NCBI GenBank assembly: GCA_002448235.1
Contig: DIXF01000001.1
Location: forward strand, 73,136-137,135
Length of the DNA stretch: 64,000 bases
Direction of reading: 5' to 3'
From: Syntrophaceae bacterium UBA6087
GTDB lineage: Bacteria; Desulfobacterota; Desulfomonilia; UBA1062
The translations under genes were made by a program, and so were the position numbers. Below the pieces are notes generated by a model. The model saw only the letters and a program-made list of their open reading frames with translations. It was not told the DNA's origin and did no database searches. Below are positions 3,335 through 27,794 of the stretch, one piece after another. Numbering within the stretch: position 1 is the stretch's first letter; each line of letters begins with the position of its first letter.

Positions 3335-3335
3335 G

Positions 3336-4853
3336 ATGCAGATAAGGGCCGAAGAAATAAGTAAGATTATCAAGGACCAGATCAAGGGGTATGAGAAAGA
3401 GGTAGATGTTGCCGAGACTGGTACGATCTTGAGCGTCGGCGACGGTATTGCCCGTGTCTATGGCCTCAGAAACGTTATGGCCAGCGAACTGATCGAATTT
3501 CCTCATAACGTCATGGGCATGGCCCTTAACCTGGAAGAGGATAACGTCGGTTGCGTTCTCTTTGGTGAGTCCGTAGGCATCAAGGAAGGCGATTCCGTCC
3601 GCAGGACCAAGAGGATTGTTGAAATCCCGGTCGGCGAAGGCATGCTCGGGCGCGTCGTGAACGCTATCGGCGAGCCCATCGACGGGAAGGGTCCCATCGC
3701 CTCCTCCGAAAGCCGCATCATGGACATCAAGGCACCCGGTATCGTCAAGAGGCAGCCGGTTAAAGAGCCTCTTCAGACCGGTCTGAAATCCATCGACGCA
3801 ATGACCCCGGTCGGCCGCGGCCAGCGCGAGCTCATCATCGGCGACCGCCAGACAGGTAAGACCGCCGTTGCACTCGACACCATCATCAACCAGAAGGGCA
3901 CCGGGGTTATCTGCGTTTATGTCGCAGTCGGCCAGAAGCAGTCTACAGTCGCCCAGGTTGTGGCAACACTCGAGCAGCACGGCGCCATGGAATACACGGT
4001 CGTGGTTGCGGCTACCGCATCCGACCCGGCCCCGCTGCAGTACATCGCTCCTTACGCCGGCGCTGCAATCGGCGAATTTTATATGAACAAGGGCGGACAT
4101 GCACTGTGCATCTACGACGACCTTACCAAGCAGGCCCAGGCATATCGCCAGCTATCACTGCTGCTGAGAAGGCCTCCGGGACGCGAAGCTTTCCCCGGCG
4201 ACGTTTTCTACCTGCACTCAAGGCTGCTCGAGCGCGCCGCAAAATACAGCGATGCCATGGGCGGCGGGTCACTGACCGCACTCCCCATCGTCGAGACCCA
4301 GGCCGGTGACGTTTCCGCATACATTCCGACGAACGTCATCTCCATTACCGACGGCCAGATCTTCCTTGACACCGACCTGTTCTACTCGGGTTTCCGTCCC
4401 GCAATCAACGTCGGTATCTCGGTTTCCCGCGTTGGCGGTAACGCCCAGACCAAGGCCATGAAGAAGGTTGCCGGTACGCTGAGACTCGACCTCGCCCAGT
4501 ACCGTGAGCTCGCGGCGTTCTCCCAGTTCGGTTCCGACCTCGACAAGGCGACCCAGGCACAGCTCAACCGCGGCGCCCGTCTGATGGAAATGCTCAAGCA
4601 GCCCCAGTACAAGCCGCTGCCGGTCGAAAAGCAGGTTGCCATGATCTATGTGGGAACCAACGGCCATCTTGATGAGTATGAGATAACCGCCATCGGATCT
4701 TTCGAGCAGCAGTTCTATGCATTCATGGAAACCAAGCATTCCGATATCCTCAACACCATACGGGATTCCGGAAAGATAGAGTCTGACACCGAGAAAAAGT
4801 TGAAAGATGCGATAGCCGACTTCAAGAAAATCTTCGTAGCAGAAGAGAAATAG
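3336..4853 (+). CDS. atpA: F-type ATP synthase F1 subunit alpha
   Basis: 505 aa with P-loop GDRQTGKT and alpha-subunit-like sequence throughout (for example [25 protein letters not shown]). Confidence 0.97.
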
Positions 4854-4861
4854 GTGCTTAA

Positions 4862-5722
4862 ATGCCGAATCTAAAGGACCTTAAGAATAGGATCGGCTCT
4901 GTGAAGAAGACAGAGCAGATAACCTCGGCCATGCGCATGGTCGCGGCAGCGAAGCTGAGGAGAGCTCAGAACGATATCATCGCAGCCCGCCCCTATGCCA
5001 TCAAGACGAACGAGGTTCTGGTCTCGCTGGTTACGAGGACCAATCCTGACATGCATCCCCTGTTGAGGGTCCGGGAACCCAAAAAATGCGTTCTCGTCGT
5101 CATCGCCTCTGACAGGGGTCTGTGCGGTTCTTTCAACCAGAATGTCTTCAGAAGGACAGAAGCCTTTATCAAGGCCAACAAGGACAAGTACGAGGAAATC
5201 TCCCTGGTGCTGGTTGGAAAACGCTCCAGAGACTACTTCAAGCGCAAGCAGATGAAGGTGCGCAAGAATGTGGTGATCGGGGTTCCGTCCTATGATCTGG
5301 CCGCGGAGATAGGTGACGACCTCATTGATGGATACATCAAGGAAGAGTTCGACGAGCTGATCGTCATCTTCAATGAGTTCAAATCCGCCATGACACAGAT
5401 CCTCCATGAGGACAGGGTGCTGCCGGTGGAACGTATGGACGTGGAGGACGAAGCAACGAATGTGGAATACCTCTACGAGCCGTCCGAAGACGTGCTTCTT
5501 GATGCGCTGCTTCCCATGAGCTTCAAGATGTTCTTCTACCGTGCGATCCTCGAGTCTGCCGCATCCGAGCACGGTGCGCGCATGACCGCCATGGAGAGCG
5601 CATCGGGCAACGCCGCCGACATGATCGGCAGGCTGAGCATAAAGTACAACCGGGCTAGACAGGCTGCTATTACGACCGAGCTCATGGAAGTCGTGGGCGG
5701 TGCAGAGGCCTTGAAGGGTTAA
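4862..5722 (+). CDS. atpG: F-type ATP synthase F1 subunit gamma
   Basis: 286 aa with a gamma-subunit N-terminus (KDLKNRIGSVKKTEQITSAMRMVAAAKLRRAQ) and a C-terminal helix. Confidence 0.95.
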   Translation: MPNLKDLKNRIGSVKKTEQITSAMRMVAAAKLRRAQNDIIAARPYAIKTNEVLVSLVTRTNPDMHPLLRVREPKKCVLVVIASDRGLCGSFNQNVFRRTEAFIKANKDKYEEISLVLVGKRSRDYFKRKQMKVRKNVVIGVPSYDLAAEIGDDLIDGYIKEEFDELIVIFNEFKSAMTQILHEDRVLPVERMDVEDEATNVEYLYEPSEDVLLDALLPMSFKMFFYRAILESAASEHGARMTAMESASGNAADMIGRLSIKYNRARQAAITTELMEVVGGAEALKG

Positions 5723-5732
5723 CTAATTATAA

Positions 5733-7154
<1,422 letters not shown>

Positions 7155-7165
7155 GGGAGTCGACA

Positions 7166-7588
7166 ATGGCTGAAAATTACATGCAGCTCGATGTAGTAAC
7201 CCCCGAGAAGGCCGTCTTAAGCCGTATGGTTGAAGAGGTCATCGCCCCGGGGAGTGCCGGCGAGTTCGGCGTCCTTATCGGGCACACGCCATTTCTCACG
7301 ACGCTGAAACCCGGCCAGCTCATTGCAAAGGCCGAGGACAGGGATATCTACATGGCGGTCGGCGGCGGTTTCGCGGAGATCATCGGAAGCAGGGTCATCG
7401 TGCTTGCAGAATCGGCCGTGCTTGCAGAAGATATCAATGAGCAGGAAGTAAAAGCGGATCTGGAGCAGGCCGAGCATAAGCTCAAAGGCCTCGATAAGGA
7501 AGATTCGGAATACAGCAAGTGGGATAGCAGGATCAGGAAAGCAGAAGTCAAGCTTAAGGTCCTGGAAAACTGGCAGAAAGCTTCATAG
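7166..7588 (+). CDS. atpC: F-type ATP synthase F1 subunit epsilon
   Basis: 140-aa epsilon-like beta-sandwich plus helical hairpin. It is the last gene of the operon. Confidence 0.92.
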   Translation: MAENYMQLDVVTPEKAVLSRMVEEVIAPGSAGEFGVLIGHTPFLTTLKPGQLIAKAEDRDIYMAVGGGFAEIIGSRVIVLAESAVLAEDINEQEVKADLEQAEHKLKGLDKEDSEYSKWDSRIRKAEVKLKVLENWQKAS

Positions 7589-7622
7589 CAGGAATCGATC
7601 AACACACTCCTTAAGGTAAGTT

Positions 7623-7650
7623 CCGGGGGGATCGCAAGGTCCCCCTTTTT
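7623..7650 (+). terminator. rho-independent terminator of the atp operon
   Basis: A GC stem (GGGGGGAUC/GGUCCCCCC) closes a GCAA tetraloop and is followed by TTTTT (7646-7650). Confidence 0.8.
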
Positions 7651-7708
7651 CTATGGAGAGTGTATTGACTCCCGCACTATTTCCCTTTATAAACAAAACC
7701 ACTTTTGT

Positions 7709-7782
7709 GCGCCCATAGCTCAGTTGGATAGAGCGTTTGACTACGAATCAAAAGGTCGCAGGTTCGAGTCCTGCTGGGCGCA
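7709..7782 (+). tRNA. tRNA-Arg (anticodon ACG)
   Basis: Cloverleaf readable by eye: acceptor GCGCCCA/UGGGCGC, D-arm GCUCAGUUGGAUAGAGC, anticodon stem-loop UUUGA-CUACGAA-UCAAA, T-arm GCAGGUUCGAGUCCUGC. CCA is not encoded. Confidence 0.9.
7739..7782 (+). repeat. attL: 44-bp core (3' part of tRNA-Arg) repeated at 17602-17645
   Basis: Exact 44-bp direct repeat GACTACGAATCAAAAGGTCGCAGGTTCGAGTCCTGCTGGGCGCA. Confidence 0.85.
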
Positions 7783-8136
7783 CTCTTTATTCAATAAGTT
7801 ACAAACAGGGGTTTAAGATAATACTTTCTGGTTCCTCAATAGTTCCACATGCTGCCTGGTTTGCTTATCAGCCCTCTCATGACTTCCAACCTATCGGGGA
7901 CTACCCATAATTCTCAACATCCCTCCCCTTAGACACTTTACGCTCCTTCTTGAGATTTACTGAAAATTATTCAGGTTTTCTCACGGCTGCCTTTATCTGA
8001 GCTGAGATGTATACAACAGATTCCCCGACAAAGTATCGGGTCAGTCTACGCGCGCGTACGCGCGTACGTGTTGCAAAACTAGCGTTTGCTACATTCATCA
8101 TTGCTTATATATCAGAAGGGGGGATGTCTACTGTTT

Positions 8137-9294
8137 TTACAGTCTCCCACAGAAAGCCTGGTCCAGCAACGCGGGTATGAGTGCCTCAAGGGAAGCTGCC
8201 TCTTGCTGGTGGATGGCTCGTACGCATTCGATTCGCCTGATAATCTCGCTGAAGTCCCGTTGCAGCTCAATTGGTGGTAACGGGACCTCGATAGTCTCCA
8301 GTTTCTTTAGCCCAAGTGTGCGATTCCTGTCTGTGGCACCGGGTGAACATCCACCGAGTAGGGCAAGACCTTCATGAGATAGAAACCACTGGCATAAAAA
8401 TTCTGGAGTTACTCTTTCATGGTCAACACGACAAGTAATATACCGGTGCGAGCCTACATAGCCATCATAGTCTTTTGATATAACAGCAACTGCACCTTCC
8501 CAAGCCTTTATGTTGCTGAAGAGAAGGTCTCCGGCTTTCATCCAGTATGGACGCTGCCAAGTCCATTGACTACCTTGTACTCGGGGTTTCTCAAATAAAC
8601 CTCTTCCAAAAGAGCGGATGCCGAGTTCTGGATACCAGGAGTCAGGGTCGATTTCCACTGGACGACGCACCACGGGAGCGACCTCGGCCATAGGGAAGCG
8701 GGGAGCATCCCTGCTGATTTCTTCGACCCGACTGAGAATGAGGGCGACTTGCTCTTCCTTGACCTGTTCGGTCAGCCCTCTGGCCTCTTTGACTCGGGAT
8801 ACAACTTTGGCAAGCTTCGCTGCAATCCGGCGTTGTTCGGGCAAGGGAGGGAGAGGAATGGAAATTGACAAAAAACGTTCTTGTTTCAAGCGTAAGCGGC
8901 TTTGTCGTGACATGCCCGTGCTGAGTGATTCAACTTCTTGCCAGAAAGAGAGGCGTGACATGTACCATTTCAGGAAGTTCCTTTCTACTTGCTCCTCATC
9001 AACCACGAAACATGGAAATTCATTGCTGACATAGGCTCCATCGGAATCAGGACATGCAATACCAAATGAACCTTTCCAGGCAAACAGCCGGTTGTAAATA
9101 AAGTCTCCATTCTCAACACGGTATATCTTGCTTGCTTTAATATTAATACCCTTGGTTCGCTGTTTCACGAAAAGACCACCTGCATACAAGCGCATTCCAA
9201 GAAGCCGATACTCTATATCTGCTTGTGGTTCCTCCGGGCGGCTCACTTCATTCAAAACCTCACCAAGCCTAACCTCAGGCCAATCAATTTTCAT
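8137..9294 (-). CDS. hsdS: Type I restriction-modification specificity subunit HsdS
   Basis: 385 aa with two target-recognition-domain halves separated by conserved repeats. It overlaps hsdM by 4 nt. Confidence 0.85.
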   Translation of the reverse strand: MKIDWPEVRLGEVLNEVSRPEEPQADIEYRLLGMRLYAGGLFVKQRTKGINIKASKIYRVENGDFIYNRLFAWKGSFGIACPDSDGAYVSNEFPCFVVDEEQVERNFLKWYMSRLSFWQEVESLSTGMSRQSRLRLKQERFLSISIPLPPLPEQRRIAAKLAKVVSRVKEARGLTEQVKEEQVALILSRVEEISRDAPRFPMAEVAPVVRRPVEIDPDSWYPELGIRSFGRGLFEKPRVQGSQWTWQRPYWMKAGDLLFSNIKAWEGAVAVISKDYDGYVGSHRYITCRVDHERVTPEFLCQWFLSHEGLALLGGCSPGATDRNRTLGLKKLETIEVPLPPIELQRDFSEIIRRIECVRAIHQQEAASLEALIPALLDQAFCGRL

Positions 9295-10802
9295 TCTTCG
9301 TCCTCCCGGCCATTGCCTTCAGGTGCGAGAAGTTCCTGAATTTCCTCCATTATTTCCAGAATCCGCTGTTCCTTGGCAGCGATGTCGGCGGCGATGGCCG
9401 CCGGTCTGAGGTGCTTGACAGCAGCGCGGGCGTTGGGATTGACGGCAGACAGGTCATAGTTCCGCTTGATGATATCCTCTACCTGCACTATCCATGAGCG
9501 TTCCGAGATGGAGCGAGTTTTGGCCTGGTCCAGGCAGTCGGGCAGGTCGTTTTCTGGAATGGGTCTTTGGGCTTTGGTGAGGGAGAAACCTACGGCCTGG
9601 GCATCGTAATACCAAATTTCTTTCGTGCCGACGGGATTGCCTACCAGGTCTAACTCGCGGTTGAAGAATAGGAGGTTGGTCTTCGGTCCCGTGCCACTGG
9701 CAACGGCGTTGGCGAAGACTCCGGCAGGCAGGCTGACGATGGCCCAGAGGTTGAACTGTTCGAGTAGTTCTTTTTTAGTCTGCATGTAGGCGTTTTCATT
9801 GGTCTTGAACAGGACACCCTCATCGATGACCATGCCCACCCGTCCGCCTCGCCGCACCTTCTTCATGATGTGCTGCAAAAAGGTGATGGAAGTAGCCTTG
9901 GACGGGTAAGGGAAATTGGAGGTGACGCTAGCGTGCTCTGTGCCGCCGAAGGGGGGATTGGTGAGAATCACGTCGAAACGGTCCTTCTCGGTGAACTTGC
10001 GTACGTCGTCGCCCAAGGTGTTTCTACGAGTGAGATTCGAGGAAAAGACGCCGTGGAGAATCATGTTCATGCAACCCATCAGATATGGTAGGGCTTTTTT
10101 CTCCTGACCATAAAAGGTCTCTTCTTGAAGCTGCTTGTCGTGTTTGGGCAGGATACGTTCACCTAACGATGCGCGCATATGGCTGTGGGACTCGACCAGA
10201 AAGCCCGAAGAACCCATGGCTGGGTCGTAAACCGTCTCACCAAGTGTGGGGTTCACCATTTGGACAATGAACTCTATGACCGGACGAGGAGTATAAAATT
10301 CGCCGCCGAATCCACCCTCACGCCCAAGCTTTGCAAGCAAGGATTCATAGAGGTGCGATAGGGTGTATACGTCCTCAGCGGTGTCGAACTTGATTTCCTC
10401 AATGGCGTCGATGGCATCGCGCAAGATGGCTCCATCCTTGAGCATCTTTGATGGCGCATCAGCGAATACTCCCCGGATGACCGAGCGAGCACTGTTGCCC
10501 TTCAAGTCACGCAAGTAAGGAAAGAGATTATCTCCAAGAAAGTTTATGAGGTCACGGCCAGTGAGTCGCCTCTTCGTATCGGTCCAAGCGGACCACTGGT
10601 ATTTGCTTGTGATGATGGGCTGGTAATCTCGTCCCTCAAACTCAGCCTCAGCTCGGCGCTTATCCTCGAACTCCTCGAAACACTTGAGGAATAGGAGCCA
10701 GGAGATTTGTTCGACGTAATCGAGCAGACTGTTGGTGTTGTCGTCCTGCCGGAGAATCTTACAGGCTTTCCAGAATTGGGTATTGAGTGTTTCGCGTGAC
10801 AT
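9291..10802 (-). CDS. hsdM: Type I restriction-modification N6-adenine DNA methyltransferase HsdM
   Basis: 503 aa with the NPPFGG catalytic motif (ILTNPPFGGTEHAS) and an HsdM N-terminal domain. It lies immediately downstream of hsdR. Confidence 0.9.
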   Translation of the reverse strand: MSRETLNTQFWKACKILRQDDNTNSLLDYVEQISWLLFLKCFEEFEDKRRAEAEFEGRDYQPIITSKYQWSAWTDTKRRLTGRDLINFLGDNLFPYLRDLKGNSARSVIRGVFADAPSKMLKDGAILRDAIDAIEEIKFDTAEDVYTLSHLYESLLAKLGREGGFGGEFYTPRPVIEFIVQMVNPTLGETVYDPAMGSSGFLVESHSHMRASLGERILPKHDKQLQEETFYGQEKKALPYLMGCMNMILHGVFSSNLTRRNTLGDDVRKFTEKDRFDVILTNPPFGGTEHASVTSNFPYPSKATSITFLQHIMKKVRRGGRVGMVIDEGVLFKTNENAYMQTKKELLEQFNLWAIVSLPAGVFANAVASGTGPKTNLLFFNRELDLVGNPVGTKEIWYYDAQAVGFSLTKAQRPIPENDLPDCLDQAKTRSISERSWIVQVEDIIKRNYDLSAVNPNARAAVKHLRPAAIAADIAAKEQRILEIMEEIQELLAPEGNGREDEE

Positions 10803-13328
10803 TTATGCAGCTTCTCCCATGTAGATAAGGGTTATTAGTTTGTCGATAGCGCCGCGTAGCTCGGTCATGCCGCCGAAGGCTTGTGCCACCCGGCGTACGT
10901 CGCTATTGAAAGGACTGAGACCAAAGACGGCCGGGTTGTCTGCCTCCTCGATGCCGCCAAAACGGTATTTCTCCATCAGGCCAAGTAGCACGGCTCGGGC
11001 CTCCTCGTCGAAGGAAGCAAAAAATTCTCGATGTAGATTAAACAGTGCATTAGCCCGCTCCTCACAACTGTGCAGATTTGCTCCGAAGGCTATATGAGCC
11101 AGTAGGTCATAGGAATCGGCATCGGGCATCTGGAGGATTTCTCGGAGGATGTCGAGGTGGACCATCCGTTCATCGAGCAGGTCCAAAAGTTCTGAACGCC
11201 TCTGATTGCTCATCCAGGTGGTTTGCAGCTCGACCATGGAATGGCAGGCGGCGAGAATCTCCTCCCGCACTTTTTTGAGATAGTCCGTCGGGGTGACGAG
11301 ATTGCCTTCGGCATCTCTTTCTTCGTATGTCTCGTCTACCATATGGACATTTAAACCAGTTATTTTTACTTTGGCTTTGGGCGTCTCCTTTTTAGGCTTG
11401 AGGCTAATACCCAGTGTTACGGGTGCAGCGGGACCGGTGTTAAGCGTCATTTGGATGCTGTTGTGGTCCTTCGCGGAGGCAACCAGCACTACCTTGCCTT
11501 TACCGATGCCGGAGAAGAAAAACTGGCCGTCTGGGCCGGTGAGTTGGTCTAACACTTCATTGGGGCCGGTCTGAAGGTAGACGTGGGCAGCATTGATGGG
11601 CTTGCCGGTTTCTTCGCTCGTAACCCGGCCACCGACAATGCAGGTAAAAGGCTCATCTGTGCCAGCACCGCCGTCAGGTGCCTCTCCGGGCTTGTCCCAG
11701 TCGTCAAAAAGGCGGGAGGCGTTGGTATAATCGATGACGCGGAACCAGAATTTGTCGGTGTCTGCGCAGAGCCGCGAGCCACGCCCCACGATTTGCTTGA
11801 AGGAGACCACCGAGGAGATGGGTTTCATAAAGACGACGTTGCGCACACTGGGTGCATCCACACCGGTGGTCAACAAATCGACAGTGGCGGCGATGACGGG
11901 CAATTGCTTTTCCGTGTCCTGAAATCGCTCTAGCAGGGCCTTGCCAGTTGAACCTTCCTCGGAGACGATACGGACGGCATACTCCGGTACGCTCAGGTCA
12001 GTGTTAAGTAGGTTCAACTCCTTGGTGACTTGCAATGCGTGGTCCATATTAACGCAGAAAACCATGGTCTTTTCCATGCGGCCGAAGCGGCGCATGAGCT
12101 TATCCATGTGAGCGCAGAGCTTCTTCACGTGCTCGGGCATGGTTATCTTGCGTTCGAAGTCCGGCATGTCGTAACGGTCTTGCGGGTCTGCTTCCGGCGG
12201 GACTTCCAGTTTTGCGCCCTGGGCGGTGACTTCTTTTATAACAAGTCCGTTCTTGGTGAAGTTGGTGACGGAGCGGTGAACTTTATATGTCGCGAGAAAG
12301 CCATCGTCGATGCCCTGACCAAGGGAATAGGTGAAGACTGGGTCACCGAAATATTTATAGGAGTCAATATTCTCTGTTCGCTTTGGTGTTGCGGTCATGC
12401 CGAGCTGAACTGCGCTCTCAAAATGCTTGAGGATTGCATTCCAGGTTCCGAAGCCAGAACGATGGCATTCGTCTATGACAATGAGGTCGAAGAAGTCCCG
12501 TGGGTACAGATGGAACAGGCGGTTGCCATCCGAACCGGAATACATGGCTTGGTAGATGCTAAAGTAGATGGAGCGGTTTTTCGGTGCCATGCCCTCGGCG
12601 ATAATGTCGCGCTCGTTTTCGAAGGGCTCGAAGGTGTTATAAGCCTGATTGCGCAGAACATTGCGGTCGGCGAGAAAAAGAATGCGCGGGTGGCGGTCCT
12701 GACCGGCGGCGTTCCATTTTGTCTGAAATAGTTTCCAAGCGGTCTGAAAGGCGATAACCGTCTTGCCCGTGCCCGTGGCGAGGTTTATCAGGATGTGTTT
12801 CTGTCCGCTCAGAATCGCCTCGATTATGCGGTTGATAGCGACTTCCTGATAGTAGCGAGGCCGTTTGCCCCCCTTAGTACAGTAAGGAGATAGTAGCGGG
12901 TTCGCGGTCTGAGCGGTGTCTATAGCTTTGACCGCGCAAAGTCTCTGCCAGAGATTTTCTGGGGAGGGGTAGGAGACGAGGCTGCGCTGGGTGTTAGTGA
13001 TGAAATCCCACTCCTCGATGCCGTGACCATTGGTTGAGTAGGCAAAGAAAAGACCCAGAATCTGGGCATAATCCTTAGCCTGCTGAAGACCCGCACCGGG
13101 AGAGAGGTCTTCGGCCTTGGCCTCGACTACAGCTATGGGAAAGGATTCCTCATAACGAAGAAGATAGTCGGCTTTCTTGCCTTTCTGCCTCTTGTGCCCA
13201 TCTCCAACGATGACAATTTGACCATCCGTGAAATAATGCTGTTCGGTTATTCTCCACACGGGTATGTCCCAGCCAGCTTTAAGCAAGGCAGGAGTTACCA
13301 GAACACGACATGTATCTGCTTCGTTCAC
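10803..13328 (-). CDS. hsdR: Type I restriction enzyme R subunit HsdR (with an inserted beta-sandwich domain)
   Basis: 841 aa. The N-terminal PD-(D/E)xK nuclease region reads ADYLL...VVEAK. SF2 helicase motifs include LATGTGKT and VIDECHRS. The C-terminal helical domain is preceded by a CarboxypepD_reg-like segment (GRVTSEETGKPINAAHVYL...GPDGQFFFSGIGKGKVVL). Confidence 0.9.
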   Translation of the reverse strand: MNEADTCRVLVTPALLKAGWDIPVWRITEQHYFTDGQIVIVGDGHKRQKGKKADYLLRYEESFPIAVVEAKAEDLSPGAGLQQAKDYAQILGLFFAYSTNGHGIEEWDFITNTQRSLVSYPSPENLWQRLCAVKAIDTAQTANPLLSPYCTKGGKRPRYYQEVAINRIIEAILSGQKHILINLATGTGKTVIAFQTAWKLFQTKWNAAGQDRHPRILFLADRNVLRNQAYNTFEPFENERDIIAEGMAPKNRSIYFSIYQAMYSGSDGNRLFHLYPRDFFDLIVIDECHRSGFGTWNAILKHFESAVQLGMTATPKRTENIDSYKYFGDPVFTYSLGQGIDDGFLATYKVHRSVTNFTKNGLVIKEVTAQGAKLEVPPEADPQDRYDMPDFERKITMPEHVKKLCAHMDKLMRRFGRMEKTMVFCVNMDHALQVTKELNLLNTDLSVPEYAVRIVSEEGSTGKALLERFQDTEKQLPVIAATVDLLTTGVDAPSVRNVVFMKPISSVVSFKQIVGRGSRLCADTDKFWFRVIDYTNASRLFDDWDKPGEAPDGGAGTDEPFTCIVGGRVTSEETGKPINAAHVYLQTGPNEVLDQLTGPDGQFFFSGIGKGKVVLVASAKDHNSIQMTLNTGPAAPVTLGISLKPKKETPKAKVKITGLNVHMVDETYEERDAEGNLVTPTDYLKKVREEILAACHSMVELQTTWMSNQRRSELLDLLDERMVHLDILREILQMPDADSYDLLAHIAFGANLHSCEERANALFNLHREFFASFDEEARAVLLGLMEKYRFGGIEEADNPAVFGLSPFNSDVRRVAQAFGGMTELRGAIDKLITLIYMGEAA

Positions 13329-14002
13329 TCAATAACATCCTCTCTTGTCATTCACATAACAATGCGTACCATTTACCGCGTTGAAACATGTCATTTGTTT
13401 TATATAATACCCTTCTTTCAATGGGATATGCAATCTAATCAGACAGGGGAGGGCGCTAGATTTTAAAATTCCATCTCAACACCAAATCAACGGGAGTAAT
13501 ATTTTTACCTGCACATCCTCAGCACTTAACTCCTATTATAAGGCACATAATAGTATAGTTATATTGGTTTGTAAATAATGAAAAAGACACAATATTTTAG
13601 TTGCTTTGATGTATAATAAAAAAGAATTACTCTCAGCAGGAGAGCATTGAAGTGCGCTGATAAGGGCAGCGATTGATTATTTCTGCGCTCCTTTTTTTCA
13701 GACCTTGGTGGGTTATGTTTTTCTCCTGACCAATCCCCATGCCCATTCTTCCCACCATCCTGTGGAGAGCTGATTTGCCGCCCGCAGCACCTTCCCATTC
13801 TTTTCTCTCCATTTCTCTGATAAGGAGAGCGCTGCAAAAAAGCCTCTAACATATGGCAATATAATTAAAACAGTGTCACTTTTGGTACTCGTGTAATATT
13901 TTACTCGCTTGTGCCTTTACCAGCTTGGGAAGGGCTGACTGAGATATTTTGCATTAACAATTCAGGCCGCCGCCTCGGTGCCATTTTTGAATACACCTCC
14001 CT

Positions 14003-14581
14003 TTAGCTTTTTGCCTCTACAGTGCTATTTCCGGCACTGGTACGAGTACCATTTCCGGCACTGGCAAATGACTTTCCTTCATCCTTTTTTTTGCGCTTAG
14101 CCTCGTTGAACTTTCTCAGAGATTTACTGTATGAGACGGCTTTCTTTTTTTCCCTTGGAATGAAGTTGGAAGCTCCATATAACCTCCAGTCGTCTATGAG
14201 TCGATAACTTGACCAGTCCTTCCCATTTCCTACTGTACCTCCTTGATGAATAACCTCAATGAATCCCAATTTCACCAATTCTCGAAGTGCACGCGCAAAG
14301 GAACTCCTTGGTATGCCAAAGCATGCTGCTTCCGCATAGGTGAAAACAATAGGCTCATTATAATGGATGATACGTGGCTTCTTTTTTCCATCCTTGACCT
14401 TCTTGTATGGCCTTTTCTGGATGAACCTGAAATATACACGAATTGCCGTTGCACTGAGATGAGAGAATGCCTCTGAAGTAATAAGCTCATTTTCCACCTT
14501 AACCCAACTGTCAGGTCTGCCGAAGAGCCACCCCCTCTCCTTGAGCATGTCTTTAATTGTCGTTTGCATGGGGGTTTTCAT
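14003..14581 (-). CDS. hypothetical winged-helix-like DNA-binding protein with basic C-terminal tail
   Basis: 192 aa. A putative HTH segment reads FARALRELVKLGFIEVIHQGG. The Lys-rich tail has no catalytic motifs. It is the last gene of the island operon and overlaps the upstream ORF by 4 nt. Confidence 0.5.
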   Translation of the reverse strand: MKTPMQTTIKDMLKERGWLFGRPDSWVKVENELITSEAFSHLSATAIRVYFRFIQKRPYKKVKDGKKKPRIIHYNEPIVFTYAEAACFGIPRSSFARALRELVKLGFIEVIHQGGTVGNGKDWSSYRLIDDWRLYGASNFIPREKKKAVSYSKSLRKFNEAKRKKKDEGKSFASAGNGTRTSAGNSTVEAKS

Positions 14582-14790
14582 AGACCGCCCCTATGTTTTT
14601 GATGTTTCTGAATCATAAGCATCAATATGATTTTTGCGTTCTCGCTAAGTTCCTGATATGCCTTAGATTTCTTCAGCTCAGGAGGGATAGGCAATTTTTC
14701 CTCAAGCCATGCTCGTCGTTGGGATGCAGTCTGGAGATTATCGGGGCATTTAAACATGTCCAGACCTCCGGGATGATGAATCATACGCAC
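14578..14790 (-). CDS. hypothetical small protein (70 aa)
   Basis: ORF in the operon with overlapping start and stop junctions. No recognisable domain. Confidence 0.35.
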   Translation of the reverse strand: MRMIHHPGGLDMFKCPDNLQTASQRRAWLEEKLPIPPELKKSKAYQELSENAKIILMLMIQKHQKHRGGL

Positions 14791-15139
14791 CCTTTCCTCG
14801 ACCCTTCGAAACCACCTCGCCGATGGCGTTTTTTTGCAAAAGAATGGCCTTCAGGCAATTCTTTCCATATGGCTTGTACGGATAAAGCGGGCAATCTACA
14901 CTCGGGCACAAACGGACCTCTTTTGTCTGCTCTTTACAGCAATAAAAACAATGTGCTCGAATAGCCTTGTCACGGTCTTGCGGGTTCTGCTTGCCCTTGC
15001 CTAATCGGTAAGGGTAGAGGGCACAGTCCTTCATGGGACATGCCGTAATTTCCTTTATACTCCGGGCTGTACAGTCCAGACATCTTTCACGAATAGACCT
15101 CCGTCTGTTGATATGGGCTTCTTTTGTTATACCGCTCAT
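14750..15139 (-). CDS. hypothetical Cys-rich zinc-finger protein with internal duplication
   Basis: 129 aa with two copies of a Cx2C...CPx2DCxLYPY(R/K) module (CLDC..ACPMKDCALYPYR and CFYCC..LCPSVDCPLYPYK). Confidence 0.5.
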   Translation of the reverse strand: MSGITKEAHINRRRSIRERCLDCTARSIKEITACPMKDCALYPYRLGKGKQNPQDRDKAIRAHCFYCCKEQTKEVRLCPSVDCPLYPYKPYGKNCLKAILLQKNAIGEVVSKGRGKGAYDSSSRRSGHV

Positions 15140-15142
15140 GAT

Positions 15143-15394
15143 TTACCTCTCGCCCAATTCCCGTTGAACGCGCTCAGCCCGTTCAACACTTTCTTTCTTT
15201 GCGGCCTCGATTATAGCTGCCCATTCATCCAAATCTAGAACAAGCCCAACTCCTGGAACTGTGTAAATAAGTCGCGGGTATTTTCGGAGACAATGGTCCT
15301 TGTAGATGGTCGCCTTGGCCGGAAGCCCTTCAGGGACGCCTGACCCACCTTTGTCAATATCCCTAACGCGGATAATGTTTACTGCTGTTTTCAT
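15143..15394 (-). CDS. AlpA-like phage transcriptional regulator/excisionase-type HTH protein
   Basis: 83 aa. The segment AKATIYKDHCLRKYPRLIYTVPGVGLVLDLDEWAAIIE matches the AlpA pattern (ATIY...P..FP......W...E.DEW). It is the first gene of the operon, downstream of a repeat array. Confidence 0.5.
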   Translation of the reverse strand: MKTAVNIIRVRDIDKGGSGVPEGLPAKATIYKDHCLRKYPRLIYTVPGVGLVLDLDEWAAIIEAAKKESVERAERVQRELGER

Positions 15395-15455
15395 AATGAT
15401 ACCTCCCTTTGTTTATCTTTGATTGAGATACCATCAGATTCCCCCCCTATGTAGA

Positions 15456-15523
15456 GTGACAGGATGTGACAGGGGGGGTGACAAAGGGTGACAGGGGGTA
15501 ATGGAAGAGGGATGTGTCACAGG
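15456..15523. promoter_or_regulatory. operator/iteron-like array: four direct GTGACA(G/A)(G/A)G repeats at 10-12-bp spacing plus one inverted copy
   Basis: GTGACAGGA (15456), GTGACAGGG (15466), GTGACAAAG (15478) and GTGACAGGG (15488), with an inverted GTGTCACAGG at 15514-15523. The array lies immediately upstream of the AlpA-like gene start. Confidence 0.55.
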
Positions 15524-15540
15524 TGTTCCAGAGAGACCTT

Positions 15541-16158
15541 TTATTTATTAAAGTGCCCCTTGAAACGCTCATCAAAGGATATCAAGTCTGACTTTTTCAC
15601 CATAGGCCTCTTTGAAGGGTCATACTCAATGCTAATATTATGTCGCTTTAGGAATTTCTTCGCAGCTGGCCATGAATCATGATTTCTATACACTTCGAAC
15701 AAAGCATCATGAATCTCAGCTGCGCCATAAAGATAGTCCTCCTTCTCATGCAGGCCTGGAGATTTCCAAAAGGGAGATGAAAAAAGAGGGGTGGGAAGAG
15801 GGTATCCTTTTGCTTCTGCCCATTTTATGAATGTGGCAACCTTAACTGTGCCAGCGCCCGTCTCACGAAATATGCATCTCGGGCTATCACTGCCCTCTGG
15901 ATGTAGTAATAAGTCACCAGAGTCTATACTTTCGCGAATCACTGAGATTAATTGGAGCATTATATCAAAGGGTTTACATGGAATAAATCTTCTCAGCCAT
16001 TGGAGTTTACTAATATGCTCCTCAATGTCTGATAGGCTAAGGGTACTGCAGTTTATGAAAAAACCTGCAAGTAGAAAGGCCGCTTCTGGAAGTGACCACA
16101 ATTCTCTGCTTATAAAAGGAGTGTAGTCTTCATATGAAAGTCGGTATATTATCTGCAT
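15541..16158 (-). CDS. hypothetical protein (205 aa), island orphan
   Basis: AT-rich ORF between the integrase and the regulatory array. No recognisable motif. Confidence 0.45.
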   Translation of the reverse strand: MQIIYRLSYEDYTPFISRELWSLPEAAFLLAGFFINCSTLSLSDIEEHISKLQWLRRFIPCKPFDIMLQLISVIRESIDSGDLLLHPEGSDSPRCIFRETGAGTVKVATFIKWAEAKGYPLPTPLFSSPFWKSPGLHEKEDYLYGAAEIHDALFEVYRNHDSWPAAKKFLKRHNISIEYDPSKRPMVKKSDLISFDERFKGHFNK

Positions 16159-16258
16159 TGGTTATTCTCCTTTATCGTTATCCCTCCGTGGCTGGTGGCG
16201 TGGAGTGCATACTTACCAGCCCGTTCCATGACGCCGGACCTAAATCATTGTGGTTTGG

Positions 16259-17428
16259 CTACTTCGCATTACTCGATGTGGAAACAAGTGGAACTCCGTT
16301 ACCATCAGGTTCTACGTCTTTCCCCGCCAAGAGCCTCCCGGCTTTTTCTGTCGCCTGCTTCATCGTGGTCGGGGAAAGGTGGCTGTACCTCTGGGTCATC
16401 GCGTGGCTCTTGTGGGTAAGGAGCATCTGCACTGTGAAAATGTCTACGCCGTTGCTCACGAGAGTGCTCGCATAGTGGTGCCTCAGTCCGTGAAACCTGA
16501 AGTCATCGGGAAGCCCGGCTTTCTCTCTGAATGCAGCCCAACCATGTTTAAAGTCGGTCCTTTGGGCTCCCTTCTTGCCGTAGAATATATACTCTGATTT
16601 ATATTTTTTGGGGGCACTTTTGATTACGGCAATAGCCTCTGCTGACAAGGGTAAGATGACATCCTTTTTCCCCTTCGGGTCTCGCAGGAGCATAGTCTCT
16701 TGTTCAAAATTAATATCCAGCCACCGTAATTTAAATATCTCACCTCGCCTGATGCCTGTCAGCATGGCAAAGCTGATTATGGCGACGGCCATCTTATCCT
16801 TCCATATGGCGAGGGTCTCAAGCATATTTTTATGCTGCTCATGAGAGAGGTATTCGGTCCGAAGATTGTTCACCTTGGGCTTGGTAACGAGCTCGCATGG
16901 GTTGTTGCCTTTATAAAGCCCCCATTTCCTTGCAAGTGATAACATATGCGAAAGGAGGACGACTGTTCCTCGCAGAGTAGCAGGGGCGTATTGTCTTTTC
17001 CGCATACTTTTTTGTTTCTTCATGGCCGAGAGAAGCCTCTCAACATCGATGGGGCTGACCTTGTTCATGGTCTTTTCGCCGAGGGCTTTTTTGATATGCT
17101 TGCTATAAATGCTCTGGTCAGTCTTCCATGACTTTTTGTTCTCCTTAGCCCATGGGAAATAATGGTCCTTCCAGAAATTGTCTAAGGTAATGACAGGTTT
17201 TTTCCTCGTTATGAGCTCATCACCTCTAAGTATTTCGCCCTTCCATACCGTTTCCTTTTCCCGTGCAAGCTCAAGGGTAGGGAATACTTTTGACTTCTGT
17301 TTTCCGTCTTGCCGAAGCCTGACCATGTATGCTCGGTCCTTACGCTTGGTAGACTCGCAGGAGGGGCACTTTTTTGCGCTCAGCTTGTATTTGCTCTTAC
17401 ACGATTTGCAGAATATATTTATTGCCAA
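16259..17428 (-). CDS. tyrosine-type site-specific integrase with N-terminal Cys4 zinc ribbon
   Basis: 389 aa. The C-terminal catalytic region reads HGLRHHYASTLVSNGVDIFTVQMLLTHKSHAMTQRYSHL (R..H..R..Y). The N-terminus reads CKSCKSKYKLSAKKCPSC. It is adjacent to attR. Confidence 0.9.
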   Translation of the reverse strand: MAINIFCKSCKSKYKLSAKKCPSCESTKRKDRAYMVRLRQDGKQKSKVFPTLELAREKETVWKGEILRGDELITRKKPVITLDNFWKDHYFPWAKENKKSWKTDQSIYSKHIKKALGEKTMNKVSPIDVERLLSAMKKQKSMRKRQYAPATLRGTVVLLSHMLSLARKWGLYKGNNPCELVTKPKVNNLRTEYLSHEQHKNMLETLAIWKDKMAVAIISFAMLTGIRRGEIFKLRWLDINFEQETMLLRDPKGKKDVILPLSAEAIAVIKSAPKKYKSEYIFYGKKGAQRTDFKHGWAAFREKAGLPDDFRFHGLRHHYASTLVSNGVDIFTVQMLLTHKSHAMTQRYSHLSPTTMKQATEKAGRLLAGKDVEPDGNGVPLVSTSSNAK

Positions 17429-17601
17429 TAGCTTTCCTTGTTTTTCTCATCGGGTCTTGATATGGGTTCCTCAGAAGTTCCACAGGCTCCATGTAAATTG
17501 GGTATACAACAGTACACTTGAGCAATGTCAAGACCTTTATAACTCAATGAATATACTAAATAAGATAATAGTAGCAAAAATAAGTAAAATGTTATTGAAT
17601 G

Positions 17602-17645
17602 GACTACGAATCAAAAGGTCGCAGGTTCGAGTCCTGCTGGGCGCA
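17602..17645 (+). repeat. attR: displaced 3' fragment of tRNA-Arg (44 bp)
   Basis: Identical to 7739-7782. It is preceded by an AT-rich arm region at 17430-17600. Confidence 0.85.
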
Positions 17646-17736
17646 TGGTGTTTTTCATATTTGGTTCCCCTGGCGGGGTGGGTACGGAATCTCGCGTTTC
17701 ACTCAAACGGTCTTGTACTGATGAGGAATTGCATCG

Positions 17737-18717
17737 ATGGATGCAAAGCAGGCAGACAGGGAAAAGATATCCGCCGCATGCCTTTCGATTGTCTCCAATT
17801 GTACGCTTATCGCTGCAAAGATAATCGTAGGCCTTATGATGGGGTCCGTCTCGATCATCTCGGAGGCGGCCCATTCCGGTGTAGACCTTCTTGCAGCCGT
17901 GATCGCCTACTTTTCGGTCAGGACTTCCGGCAAACCTGCAGATAGAGAGCACCCCTTCGGCCACGGCAAGATAGAGAACATCTCCGGCACCATAGAAGCG
18001 GTCCTGATCCTTTTCGCCGCCGTGTGGATCATTTCCGAGGCCGTGGGAAGGCTTTTCAACCCGCAGCCGCTTGAAGCTCTCCCCTGGGGTATCGGCGTCA
18101 TGGTCTTTTCGTGCATCGTGAATCTGGCCGTCTCCCGTCGACTGTTCAGGACCGGCGAGAAAACGGATTCCATAGCGTTGAAGGCGGACGCCTGGCACCT
18201 GATGACCGATGTCTATACCTCGGCCGGTGTCATGGGCGGGCTCCTGATTATATGGATTGCCGAGATACTGATGCCCGGCAGGCATTTCCACTGGATCGAT
18301 CCGGTGGCCGCCATAGGCGTTGCCCTGCTTATCATGCATGCAGCGTGGAGGCTCACGGTTCAATCCGCCCGCGATCTCCTTGATTTTACCCTGCCTTCCT
18401 ACGAGAAGATCATCATCAGAGAGCTCATCGCCGGCAAATCCCATGAAGTCCACGGCTACCACAAGCTCCATACCCGGAAGGCCGGGAGCTACCGGTTCAT
18501 TGAATTTCACATGCTGGTGGATCCTCAGATGAGCGTAGCGGAATCCCACCTCATCACGGACGAAATAACCCACATGATCACCAATCGCCTGCCCAATGCA
18601 ACGGTCACGATCCATGTCGAGCCCTGTGACGGCAGGTGCGACGAAGAATGCCTGAGGTCATGCATGCTCTCCCGGGAAGAACGCTTCCTGAGGGATAAAG
18701 AGAGAAGCGCTCTTTGA
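17737..18717 (+). CDS. cation diffusion facilitator (CDF) family metal efflux transporter
   Basis: 326 aa with six predicted TM helices (HSGVDLLAAVIAYFS..HPFGHGKIE), a cytoplasmic C-terminal domain, and a Cys-rich tail CDGRCDEECLRSC. Confidence 0.85.
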   Translation: MDAKQADREKISAACLSIVSNCTLIAAKIIVGLMMGSVSIISEAAHSGVDLLAAVIAYFSVRTSGKPADREHPFGHGKIENISGTIEAVLILFAAVWIISEAVGRLFNPQPLEALPWGIGVMVFSCIVNLAVSRRLFRTGEKTDSIALKADAWHLMTDVYTSAGVMGGLLIIWIAEILMPGRHFHWIDPVAAIGVALLIMHAAWRLTVQSARDLLDFTLPSYEKIIIRELIAGKSHEVHGYHKLHTRKAGSYRFIEFHMLVDPQMSVAESHLITDEITHMITNRLPNATVTIHVEPCDGRCDEECLRSCMLSREERFLRDKERSAL

Positions 18718-18753
18718 GGGCCGATAAAAAGGCAGCCCCCTTTTCTAAGACAT

Positions 18754-18774
18754 CCGCCCGGAGGGGCGGGTTTT
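18754..18774 (+). terminator. rho-independent terminator after the CDF gene
   Basis: Stem CCGCCC/GGGCGG with a GGAG loop, followed by TTTT. Confidence 0.55.
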
Positions 18775-18796
18775 GACTGCCGCTGCAGCCTATCTT

Positions 18797-20641
18797 CTAT
18801 CCCCTCCGCTCGATCCCTTCCCAGTATTTGTCTTCGATCTCCTTTTTGCGCATCTTGCCGTCGATGTGGCGGGGAAGGGTCGTTACGATCTCGACGTATC
18901 TCGGGATCTTGAAACCCATGAGCCGCTCGTTGCGGCAGAATTCTATGATTTCATCCGTGGTGACGTACTGGCCGTCCTTGAGCTGGACAATGGCTGCGGG
19001 GACCTCTCCGAGCACGTGATCGGGATATCTGATCACCGCTACGTCCAGAACCTTTGCGTGGCGCTTGATGGCTGTTTCGATCTCGTTGGGGAAGATGTTC
19101 ACCCCTCCGGTGATGATCATTTCCTTGTCGCGGCCGGTGAGATAGAGAAACCCGTCATCGTCCATGCGGCCCTTGAGGCCGTCATCGAACCAGGGGGTCC
19201 CGTCGATGATCCTGAATGCCTTGCCTGCCTGCTCTGTTGACCCTACATACTTCAGGTTCAGGGTGGTGAGGCTCCTCGTCATGATGCTGCCTTCCTCGCC
19301 GGGCTTGCACCAGGAGTTCGCCTCTTTGTCGAAGACGCCTGTCTCGGCGCACCTGACCTTTCCTACGCTTTCATAACGCCCGGGCTTTTCTTCGTAGTCG
19401 GCAGGGAGAAGAACGGATGCGGCCCCTGTCTCGGACGAGCCGTAAAACTCGGTGAAGACGTTTCTCCTGCTCCCGCGGGAGCGGAAATAGGCATTGGTCG
19501 CTATTTTCAGCTCAGGGGTGGCGGGCGCTGCGGCACAGATCAGGGTGTGCATGGAGCTCAAGTCGTATGAGTTCTTTGTCTCTTCGGGAAGGCTCAGGAT
19601 CTTTTCGAGCATGGTGGGCACAACGAAGACCCAGTTGATCCGCTCGGCCTCGATGAGCCTTAAGAACTCCTTTTCGTCAAAGATCTTCATCACCACGCCT
19701 GTCCCTCCGAGCAGGATGAAAGGCACCCAGGCCGCGATGGTTCCGGCATGGTAGAGGGGCCCGGGGATAAGGCAGCGCATGTTTCTGGTTTTTTCGTCAC
19801 AGATCTCGGTGCCCCCGAAATAGAACATGAAGCTGAACTGGAGGATAAGAAACCTGAGATACTCGCCCAAGGGTACTTCGGGCGGGGTGGCGAGATCGCT
19901 GAAGGCATAGCCGATGCTGTCGAAGTAGTTCACGTTCTTGGGCATCCCGGTCGTGCCTCCGGTGTAGGGGTTCAAGGCTACGATGAAGTGCGTATCGGGC
20001 ATAGAGCCGGATGCATCGGAAATCAGGTCTTCGTACGAGAGCATGCCGTCGGAAGCTTTGCCGCCGGCGACTATGCAGTGCTGCACCGAAGGGATGAGGT
20101 CCTTTATCGCAAGTATTTTCGGGATGAACTCACTGCTTAAGATAAGGGCCTTGGGCTTTGTGGTGTTGATGGCGTGAACAAGCTCATCGCGGGTCATATG
20201 CCAGTTGAGGAAGGGCATGGGGCACCCGATGAGAGAGCAGGCAAAGAACGCCTCGAAGAATTCATTGCCGTTGTACAGGAGTTCTGCACAGCTGTCTTTC
20301 GGTTTGAGCCCGAGGGATTGGAGGGCGTTTCCAAGCTTGAATACGCGTGTCTTCAGCCCGGAATAGCTCAGGCGACTGGTCCCCGATATGATGGCCTCGC
20401 GTTCGCCGAATACCTCCCAGAGGGAGACGAGAAAATTCGGGGTGATCTTTTCCAGCCTGAAGTTGAGCAGTGCGTTGATAGTTTTTAAGTGGCCCGTGCG
20501 CTGTCCGGTTTTGAGGAATATACGGAGCGTGTTCAATCCTCCCCATTGTTTAAGGAACGTACGCAACAGCCCTCCTGTCTGCTCCATAGAGGCAAGAGAG
20601 GGCAGAGCCCTGATAAGATGACCGAAGCCCTTTCCGTGCAT
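18797..20641 (-). CDS. AMP-dependent synthetase/ligase (acyl-CoA synthetase family)
   Basis: 614 aa with the AMP-binding motif YTGGTTGMPKNV and a C-terminal lid region (GRMDDDGFLYLTGRDKEMIITGGVNIFPNEIE). Confidence 0.85.
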   Translation of the reverse strand: MHGKGFGHLIRALPSLASMEQTGGLLRTFLKQWGGLNTLRIFLKTGQRTGHLKTINALLNFRLEKITPNFLVSLWEVFGEREAIISGTSRLSYSGLKTRVFKLGNALQSLGLKPKDSCAELLYNGNEFFEAFFACSLIGCPMPFLNWHMTRDELVHAINTTKPKALILSSEFIPKILAIKDLIPSVQHCIVAGGKASDGMLSYEDLISDASGSMPDTHFIVALNPYTGGTTGMPKNVNYFDSIGYAFSDLATPPEVPLGEYLRFLILQFSFMFYFGGTEICDEKTRNMRCLIPGPLYHAGTIAAWVPFILLGGTGVVMKIFDEKEFLRLIEAERINWVFVVPTMLEKILSLPEETKNSYDLSSMHTLICAAAPATPELKIATNAYFRSRGSRRNVFTEFYGSSETGAASVLLPADYEEKPGRYESVGKVRCAETGVFDKEANSWCKPGEEGSIMTRSLTTLNLKYVGSTEQAGKAFRIIDGTPWFDDGLKGRMDDDGFLYLTGRDKEMIITGGVNIFPNEIETAIKRHAKVLDVAVIRYPDHVLGEVPAAIVQLKDGQYVTTDEIIEFCRNERLMGFKIPRYVEIVTTLPRHIDGKMRKKEIEDKYWEGIERRG

Positions 20642-21034
20642 GGGAAAAACCTCCTTGGTATGGAATAATCGTTTTCAAGATCAACAGAACTTTTAGACTC
20701 GGAAGGAAAAGTCACCCTGGTCGAAACCCGGGACACGCGTTCGGCCCTGATCCGGAAGAGATCTACAAAAGGCTCCGGGTACATGAGGCAGGCTCCGGAA
20801 TCCGGCTGGTCAGGCTTTGCCATGATGAACCCCCTTCTCCAGTTTCAAGCTATCAAAATAAAAACATCCTTAATGCATTATATTGTAATACAATATGTCA
20901 GAGTTGTAAATACAACAATTGTTATTAAAATCGAACCGTCAGGGGGCGATCGGCAGAGGAAAAAAGGGGGGACATCAGAAAAAGTGTGGTCCGATGTCCC
21001 CGATAAAGAGGTATGTGCGTCTTACTGCGTTCTT

Positions 21035-22777: not shown

Positions 22778-22852
22778 AATCGGGAGGCGACCGGTTCTTG
22801 TGTGCTTGGATGAATGAAATAACTGTAGGGAAATGACCTACTTAAGAAAATA

Positions 22853-24828: not shown

Positions 24829-24974
24829 GGGCGTATCCTGTCACGAAGCGACGCCTTCTTGAGGGATCTCCGTAATCGACAGGTCTTCGCTTCTGATCGT
24901 AGTGATGCTGTGTAACGCTCGTTGTATGACAATATGTCGCTGTTGATCAGGAAATCATGAAATAACGCCTGTTG

Positions 24975-27403: not shown

Positions 27404-27412
27404 CGTCTTTCC

Positions 27413-27778: not shown

Positions 27779-27794
27779 AGGCTACTCCTTTTTT

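Follow-up and report, generated by a model that had tools for sequence, protein, structure and literature searches.

The 64,000-nucleotide stretch of contig DIXF01000001.1 from Syntrophaceae bacterium UBA6087 that we analyzed (the window, taken at its whole length) very probably carries an integrative island of 9,863 bp. The host is a Desulfomonilia-like member of the Desulfobacterota, and the island lies in its tRNA-Arg(ACG) gene just behind the atp operon, bearing a type IB restriction-modification (R-M) system as cargo. It is an ordinary, well-delimited genomic island of the textbook kind. An original prediction, made from the letters of the DNA alone, had placed an integrative island with a type I R-M system at this tRNA, and its core reading, that an integrase had inserted the island into the 3' part of tRNA-Arg, was borne out by the criteria of the Islander study, by a second pair of repeats inside the ends and by relatives that lack the island.

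Insertion into tRNA-Arg

The features that carry this conclusion are:
7709-7782, plus strand: intact (regenerated) tRNA-Arg(ACG) gene, the host target, whose 3' 44 nucleotides are attL (Rfam RF00005, 74.9 bits; ARAGORN)
7739-7782, plus strand: attL core, the first of the two identical 44-bp copies (pattern search)
7830-7858, plus strand: candidate arm-type site (P' arm), GGTTCCTCAATAGTTCCACA (repeat at 7830-7849)
8137-9294, minus strand: hsdS, type I specificity subunit of 385 aa with two target-recognition domains (PF01420, 3.5e-16; PADLOC Specificity_I, 6.5e-82)
9291-10802, minus strand: hsdM, N6-adenine methyltransferase of 503 aa (PF02384, 2.7e-60; PF12161; PADLOC MTase_I, 2.4e-138)
10803-13328, minus strand: hsdR, restriction subunit of the EcoAI/FtnUII family (type IB), 841 aa (NF046051, Pfam, motifs)
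16259-17428, minus strand: int, tyrosine integrase of 389 aa with a TTG start (PF00589, 6.2e-33; PHROG 1, 1.5e-59)
17465-17493, plus strand: candidate arm-type site (P arm), GGTTCCTCAGAAGTTCCACA, a direct repeat of 7830-7849 (repeat at 17465-17484)
17602-17645, plus strand: attR core, the displaced 3' fragment of tRNA-Arg and copy 2 of the 44-bp repeat (pattern search)

The predicted exact recurrence of the last 44 nucleotides of tRNA-Arg was confirmed: the 44-mer GACTACGAATCAAAAGGTCGCAGGTTCGAGTCCTGCTGGGCGCA occurs exactly twice on the plus strand of the window, at 7739-7782 and 17602-17645. No third copy appears in the window even at 3 mismatches, and the 44-mer is thus not a dispersed repeat within it, which had been named as an observation that would speak against integration. 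A second copy arose in none of 100 dinucleotide-preserving shuffles. The tRNA is placed at 7709-7782 by Rfam and at 7709-7783 by ARAGORN, just downstream of atpC and the atp operon. Within it the repeat sets in at the anticodon stem, with the fourth base of the 5' arm, and reaches to the discriminator; the copy at 17602-17645 is not called as a tRNA by either program.

According to the Islander principle, a regenerated tRNA gene (tDNA) and a displaced fragment mark the ends of an island; a 3' fragment was found in 3760 of 3919 islands and an anticodon-centred attP in 2083 of the 3919 (PMC4383910). The corresponding arrangement is present here, with an intact tDNA, a 3' fragment in the same orientation downstream and a tyrosine integrase between them (PMC4383910). 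A repeat with these limits is the block of identity that an attP centred on the anticodon loop should produce, and by analogy with this class of attP the crossover probably took place in that loop. Islands with an anticodon-centred attP reportedly form classes set out by Williams in 2002. The ends of the island can be given no more finely than this 44-bp block. The prediction that the island could be delimited to the base pair is therefore right insofar as the repeats mark its ends, but the precision is that of the block. Similarly, the proposed size of about 9.9 kb stands, but the span 7709-17645 given for the island includes the host 5' half of the tRNA, and the element itself, measured as the start-to-start spacing of the repeats, comprises 9,863 bp.

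A second direct repeat, GGTTCCTCAnnAGTTCCACA, is located just inside both island ends (7830-7849 and 17465-17484), with two copies in the window against 0.02 expected by chance. Read on the minus strand, the longer element GGTTCCTCAATAGTTCCACA consists of two half-sites, TGTGGAAC and TGAGGAAC, and tandem half-sites also lie upstream of int in related elements (GTGTGACACTATGGTGACACC in several of them, GTGTGGAACTATTGTGGAACC in locus L011; fetched loci are cited by L numbers throughout). From this arrangement we infer that the inner direct repeats are the integrase arm-type sites of attP.

The composition of the DNA changes with these ends. As had been noticed, the island is richer in AT than its flanks: the GC content of 7783-17601 is 48.8%, compared with 55.5% in the rest of the window, where no other 9.8-kb stretch falls below 53.6%. 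The mobility module (13329-17601) has 44.7% GC and the R-M module (8137-13328) 52.5%, a difference for which the R-M operon is best seen as cargo; GC3 in hsdR and hsdM is about 0.62-0.65 versus 0.67-0.75 in flanking host genes. With only 33.5% GC, the arm between int and attR (17429-17601) agrees with the suggestion that an AT-rich arm and a distal integrase fit integration into a tRNA 3' end, and the same geometry recurs at tRNA-fMet in related elements. The coding of the island on the minus strand alone was likewise verified, both for all credible open reading frames (ORFs) and for all genes called on identical public contigs.

In order to follow the locus in relatives of the left flank, we used fetched loci with an AtpD 93% identical to that of the window, several clusters of which carry the names Desulfomonilia or Deltaproteobacteria. 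All of these relatives have atpC followed by tRNA-Arg(ACG). Behind the tRNA, a V-ATPase operon is found in L100, L101 and L103, housekeeping-type genes in L104 and other genes in L107, and neither this integrase nor the R-M system is present in any of these loci. In locus L106 both flanks are collinear with the window, positions 4464-11880 corresponding to window 3-7618 and 17163-21409 to window 18780-23077, and the two flanks are separated by 5.1 kb of unrelated genes. In L102 the AtpD is identical to that of L100, yet a different island directly follows tRNA-Arg (~11968-12042), comprising a 380-aa integrase of another family that adjoins the tRNA, a ParB-HTH gene, a WYL gene and an ADP-ribosylglycohydrolase. 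This difference between L102 and L100, L101 and L103 at one and the same tRNA identifies the tRNA-Arg beside the atp operon as a polymorphic and recurrent integration hotspot in the lineage. The search for an empty site that had been suggested as a check gave relatives without the island, with both flanks linked in L106, but a base-exact empty site was not among them. An identical gene content at this tRNA in related strains, which would have argued against an insertion, was not observed in these relatives.

On the right, the closest relative is L021, with an amino-acid identity of 74-80%; its genes follow the order of window 17734-31739, and synteny ends at the start of the gene for a CDF transporter. 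In none of 80 loci with relatives of this transporter did tRNA-Arg or atpC lie upstream, and the sequence 3' of the tRNA in relatives did not resemble the flanks of attR or attL in the window above the level of shuffles. A resemblance of 28 nt just after attR was considered and set aside as too weak to use. The window locus itself was found with identical proteins in contigs of JGI 3300001567 and ENA ERZ27315036, with the island present in both. The Logan contigs L003, L004, L007 and L008 stop 30 nt into the 44-bp repeat; such breaks are expected for assembly graphs with k = 31 and are for this reason not evidence of polymorphism. A degenerate attL/attR/attB/attP pattern gave 0 matches over metagenome contigs, a result that is uninformative, as the collection does not contain this organism.

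Some further observations were made at the tRNA locus. In L106 a DDE_5 transposase gene (12089-13324) comes directly after tRNA-Arg, and the gene for the CDF transporter is missing. What lies from the tRNA to the AMP-binding genes is generally variable. The anticodon stem of the tRNA-Arg in the window reads TTTGA/TCAAA (7735-7752) versus TTGGA/TCCAA in the close relatives L100 and L106, a compensatory change in the pair 29-41, of which position 29 lies 2 nt outside the repeat and position 41 inside. Rfam found the tRNA only, with a minus-strand match to Plastid-ycf2 below threshold.

Integrase, restriction cargo and candidate excisionase

The tyrosine integrase that had been read next to attR was recovered by Pfam, NCBIfam and PHROG alike. 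Its catalytic-motif residues are R227, H313, R316 and Y348, and its N-terminus (aa 1-30) contains a zinc-ribbon-like segment, CxxC-x(10-12)-CxxC, that is conserved in relatives; the N-terminal MAINIFCK.C is kept in L009. This segment could be the arm-binding domain. Some relatives carry the JGI label 'integrase/ribosomal protein L40E'.

The cargo consists of hsdR, hsdM and hsdS, as predicted and as evidenced by Pfam, NCBIfam and PADLOC, the last of which gave full-length matches for the R, M and S subunits. HsdR scores 755 bits against the NCBIfam equivalog NF046051 (cutoff 550) and retains its motifs, D..EAK of the nuclease and GTGKT, DECH, TAT and QxxGR of the helicase. HsdM has HsdM_N and N6_Mtase domains with an NPPF motif at residue 282, and the Specificity_I match of HsdS spans residues 5-383. 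The stop codon of hsdR abuts the start of hsdM, and hsdM and hsdS overlap by 4 bp (ATGA); the three genes therefore form one operon. The type IB set looks complete, intact and translationally coupled. It resembles the EcoAI/FtnUII systems in its coupled genes, catalytic motifs, equivalog-level HsdR and HsdS with two target-recognition domains, but differs from them by an insert of about 100 aa in HsdR (aa ~547-658; window 11334-11711), a beta-sandwich segment between the helicase and the C-terminal domain. The insert resembles CarboxypepD_reg, with a score of 30.8 bits that narrowly misses the gathering threshold (32.3), and among 208 plasmid records with HsdR homologues it was matched in one, Herpetosiphon aurantiacus CP000877.1, at 34% identity.

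The genes and sites between the R-M operon and attR, other than those given above, are:
13329-14002, minus strand: AT-rich spacer (40% GC) upstream of hsdR, with a sigma70-like promoter at 13575-13547 (promoter scan)
14003-14581, minus strand: o192, 192 aa, weak signal of a DnaD-like/replication-initiator winged helix (PHROG 186, 6.3e-6; tblastn to L009)
14578-14790, minus strand: o70, small protein (59-70 aa) conserved in L009 (called in public contigs)
14750-15139, minus strand: o129, Cys-rich, with two CxxC...CPxxxCxL(Y/F)P(Y/F)(R/K) repeats (ORF, L009 homologue)
15143-15394, minus strand: o83, 83 aa, candidate excisionase or AlpA-type recombination directionality factor (RDF) (remote profile and fold evidence)
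15456-15520, no strand: four GTGACA repeats spaced by about 11 bp (10-12 bp) and one inverted copy, between o205 and o83 (repeat search)
15541-16158, minus strand: o205, the gene next to int (weak similarity to a 214-aa gene at the same position in L016)
17550-17577, minus strand: promoter-like element upstream of int (promoter scan)

The o83 gene had been described as an AlpA-like regulator. This holds as a remote affinity in profile and fold, but not as membership in a family, as no match was obtained in Pfam (even at E <= 10), NCBIfam, PHROG or PADLOC. Homologues with 54-68% identity occur together with the integrase in L009, L012-14 and L016-19, and together with int the gene forms the core of five of the six types of sister element that we examined, the exception being L011. 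This is a rare family, to which 28 cluster representatives among 1.84 billion belong. For a profile of 32 members the best sequence match in the PDB was 8c3t_A, an 'AlpA family phage regulatory protein' (the excisionase of GIsul2), with E = 0.011, and of the members themselves one matches HTH_17 (6.7e-4) and one Phage_AlpA (0.036). The AF2 model from the 32-member alignment is confident, at a pLDDT of 88.4, and Foldseek yielded no significant match of it in the PDB; a model from an alignment of 4 sequences was discarded (pLDDT 68). Judging by profile and model, we accept 'AlpA/excisionase-like' for o83 as a remote assignment at the level of the fold rather than as a family match, and consider it a probable excision factor. 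With the AlpA/MerR-like winged-helix RDFs (GIsul2 excisionase 8C3T, P2 Cox, Tn916 Xis, RdfS) it shares the recognition-helix and wing pattern T.YK...P...G..L.FD.DEW, the small size and the closeness to int, and possibly the predicted fold. It is unlike them in being a rare and divergent family with a long C-terminal helix and an N-terminal strand, and in the absence of a Pfam match.

The GTGACA array upstream of o83 is a candidate operator or iteron. Note that a GTGACAC motif forms putative arm sites upstream of int in L009, L012 and L016, while the arm sites of the window itself are built on GTTCCACA/GGTTCC and not on GTGACAC. Sister elements have a similar promoter-like TTGCC/TTGAC...TAATTATAAT at the position upstream of int that corresponds to 17550-17577.

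Several genes of the island had been said to have no recognizable function, and four small genes are indeed poorly characterized. Sequence searches in Pfam, NCBIfam, PHROGs, PADLOC and the PDB returned nothing for o205, o129, o70 and o97, and o192 has no match in Pfam or the PDB. The position of o205 is a fast-evolving slot for a gene next to int. The cysteine pattern of o129 makes it probably a zinc-binding protein; it was missed by the gene callers of JGI and ENA and is 44% identical to an ORF in L009, the sister element that has the same o83-o129-o70-o192 set as the window. Two ORFs of 97 and 59 aa in the spacer 13329-14002 are doubtful genes without family matches. Scans for tandem repeats and for promoters and terminators otherwise added little.

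Sister elements

The integrase has 919 relatives, and those with 60-70% identity all come from metagenomes or metagenome-assembled genomes; more distant matches, at an identity of about 46-49%, bear names from the Desulfobacterota (such as Desulfobacterales, Syntrophobacterales and Ca. Electrothrix). The six types of sister element, with an integrase 62-70% identical to that of the window, are:
L009: the o83-o129-o70-o192 set as in the window
L011: SacI-like restriction endonuclease and C5-methyltransferase (type II R-M), D5_N/DUF5906 primase
L012-15: two candidate defence genes, PDC-S60-like and HEPN_AbiU2, separating int from the o83 homologue
L016/17: int, a 214-aa gene, o83 homologue, 647-aa primase-polymerase/AAA_25
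L018: int, a 244-aa gene, o83 homologue, small genes, a DUF3987 protein, then a DruE-type Druantia helicase
L019: int, a 339-aa gene, o83 homologue, 915-aa primase-polymerase (with AAA_25)

Four of these types (L011, L016/17, L018 and L019) thus contain a primase or primase-polymerase. In L011-15, L018 and L019 a 3' fragment of tRNA-fMet that starts at the anticodon stem lies directly upstream of int on the opposite strand, and these fragments show that the distal position of the integrase recurs in four of the six sister types. Compared with the islands collected by Hudson, Lau and Williams (PMC4383910), the island in the window shares the integrase, the tDNA site, the repeat ends and the usual size range, but its integrase adjoins the displaced fragment instead of the intact tRNA, a trait common to four sister types, and has the zinc-ribbon-like N-terminal extension.

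We put forward, as a tentative and on balance doubtful proposal, that the zinc-ribbon integrase and o83 define an undescribed family of minimalist and possibly phage-inducible islands of Desulfobacterota with swappable replication modules and defence cargo. Such elements may use tRNA-Arg, tRNA-fMet or the 5' ends of protein genes as sites, and may be ordered as int, variable gene, RDF and replication module. The module may be a primase-polymerase/helicase, DUF3987, D5_N or o129-o70-o192, and the cargo may be type I R-M, type II R-M, Druantia DruE or PDC-S60/HEPN. If true, the family would be a deltaproteobacterial counterpart of PICMI or of the P4 defence-hotspot satellites, and o129-o70-o192 would be a new module for replication or hijacking. 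Mobile elements are barely described in Desulfobacterota, and elements with this integrase and o83 are little studied; with a conserved integrase, a rare excisionase-like gene and swappable replication and defence modules, they offer a possible search handle for new defence systems or satellites.

Weighing the alternatives

In the explanation that we prefer, a circular element with an attP that duplicates the 3' part of the tRNA, beginning at the anticodon stem, would have recombined with the tRNA gene, with the integrase binding the core and the GGTTCC/GTTCCACA arm sites, and o83 would direct excision. The genes o129, o70 and o192 would take the place of the primase-helicase module of sister elements and may help the excised circle to replicate. 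The R-M cargo would methylate the host's own DNA at a bipartite target that HsdS determines and cut unmethylated incoming DNA, so that the host would be protected from phage and the island probably stabilized. Several points weigh against this explanation. Contigs with identical flanks all carry the island or break at the repeat, and polymorphism within the population was not seen; neither an exact empty attB nor the junction of an attP circle was recovered. As synteny in L021 stops at the CDF gene and L106 lacks that gene, the ancestral junction cannot be reconstructed to the base. In the island ORFs Pfam, NCBIfam and PHROG recognized no primase, relaxase or packaging gene that would point to autonomous replication or transfer. 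Finally, excision, methylation and restriction by the island are predictions from its genes.

That there was no insertion, and that the 44-bp repeat arose by chance, is dispersed or goes back to a part of the tRNA that was duplicated locally and has nothing to do with the intervening genes, is effectively refuted. Apart from the missing exact empty site nothing speaks for it, and it is contradicted by the shuffles and the two copies in the window, by a repeat with the limits known from attP-derived ones, the anticodon stem and the tRNA 3' end (PMC4383910), by the integrase alongside with arm repeats inside both ends and a compositional break, and by the relatives without the gene block. A prophage, an integrative and conjugative element (ICE) or R-M genes borne by a transposon were rejected, as structural, conjugation and transposase genes are absent between the repeats. 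No ORF of 7783-17601 has a Pfam or NCBIfam match to a relaxase, a coupling protein or a type IV secretion system. This also makes it very unlikely that the island is an integrative mobilizable element that is excised and then moved by a co-resident conjugative element via a cryptic oriT. The integrase with an excisionase-like gene, the lack of packaging genes and the small size would suit such an element, and the GTGACA array could be a site for any protein, oriT included. However, a recognizable oriT was not found either, and the small genes have no match in Pfam, NCBIfam or PHROG that would point in that direction.

It is also unlikely, though less so, that the island is a minimalist phage satellite similar to PICMI or PICI, in which a helper would induce the AlpA-like gene, the island would excise, replicate and be packaged in helper capsids, and the R-M system would serve as defence cargo. 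This would refine the explanation given above by a route of transfer and does not contradict it. The island resembles the PICMI, PICI and P4 satellites in its size of about 10 kb, its int, variable gene and AlpA-fold gene and its defence cargo (PMC10803314, PMC10085698, PMC9122126), and 9.9 kb is within the size range of satellites. In L016/17, L018 and L019 the order of int, variable gene, alpA-like gene, small gene(s) and primase is that of PICMI (PMC10803314), with cargo in L018, and the primases of the sisters include DUF3987 (L018), D5_N/DUF5906 (L011) and primase-polymerase with AAA_25 (L016, L019). The cargo of sisters is defence-related (DruE, type II R-M, PDC-S60/HEPN), like that of P4 and P2, which are reported to hold defence hotspots (PMC9122126). 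The PICMI model, however, calls for int, AlpA (PF05930/PF12728) and fis along with a primase of the DUF3987/DUF5906 type (PMC10803314), whereas the island has no such primase, sits in tRNA-Arg and not next to fis, and has no AlpA or HTH_17 at Pfam level in o83. From PICI and P4 it differs in that terS, psu, sid and delta were not found and in its host phylum, Desulfobacterota. Of the PICI set (at least four of int, regulator, pri-rep, capsid morphogenesis and terS, five in all) and of the P4 core set (psu-delta-sid/alpha) it has int and a remotely AlpA-like gene only. A PHROG scan of the island returned no structural, terminase or primase match, and Pfam, NCBIfam and PHROG recognized no terS, capsid-remodelling or other hijacking gene. 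In IMG/VR, viral contigs contained no relatives of int, of the o83 alignment or of o192, and no helper phage is known. Moreover, int, alpA and primase together are not specific to satellites, and the SatelliteFinder paper treats matches of three components as unreliable.

The remaining alternative is that the island goes back to a single integration and is now a fixed chromosomal R-M locus with decaying mobility genes, no longer mobile. Its presence in every sample with the strain, the failure to find an empty site, the lack of the primase-helicase that four sister types possess (L011, L016/17, L018, L019) and the absence of detected transfer genes would all agree with this. Against it stand the identical 44-bp repeats, a full-length integrase ORF with its catalytic residues and conserved N-terminus, the intact o83 and pair of arm sites, and a composition that has not ameliorated (44.7% GC in the mobility module versus 55.5%). 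On these grounds we regard such a remnant as improbable.

As an integrative island with R-M cargo, the element provides a clean example of how a restriction system of type IB, complete in its genes, was gained horizontally by an uncultured, sulfate-reducer-type, Desulfomonilia-like lineage of anaerobic engineered habitats. The island itself challenges no current idea; modest extra interest attaches to its uncharacterized element family, to the rarity of its excisionase-like core protein and to the unusual beta-sandwich insert that HsdR carries.

Two observations on sister elements may be added. In L009 the core is followed by a 128-aa HTH protein (13993-14379), whose N-terminus looks by eye like that of a small terminase or a regulator, and then by several small ORFs; a terS in this element would bear on the satellite hypothesis. 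In L011 a hicA-hicB toxin-antitoxin pair close to the integrase, on its outer side, lies between two 3' fragments of tRNA-fMet (~8470 and ~9695), and the region 8470-9700 looks like a tandem or remnant mini-island.

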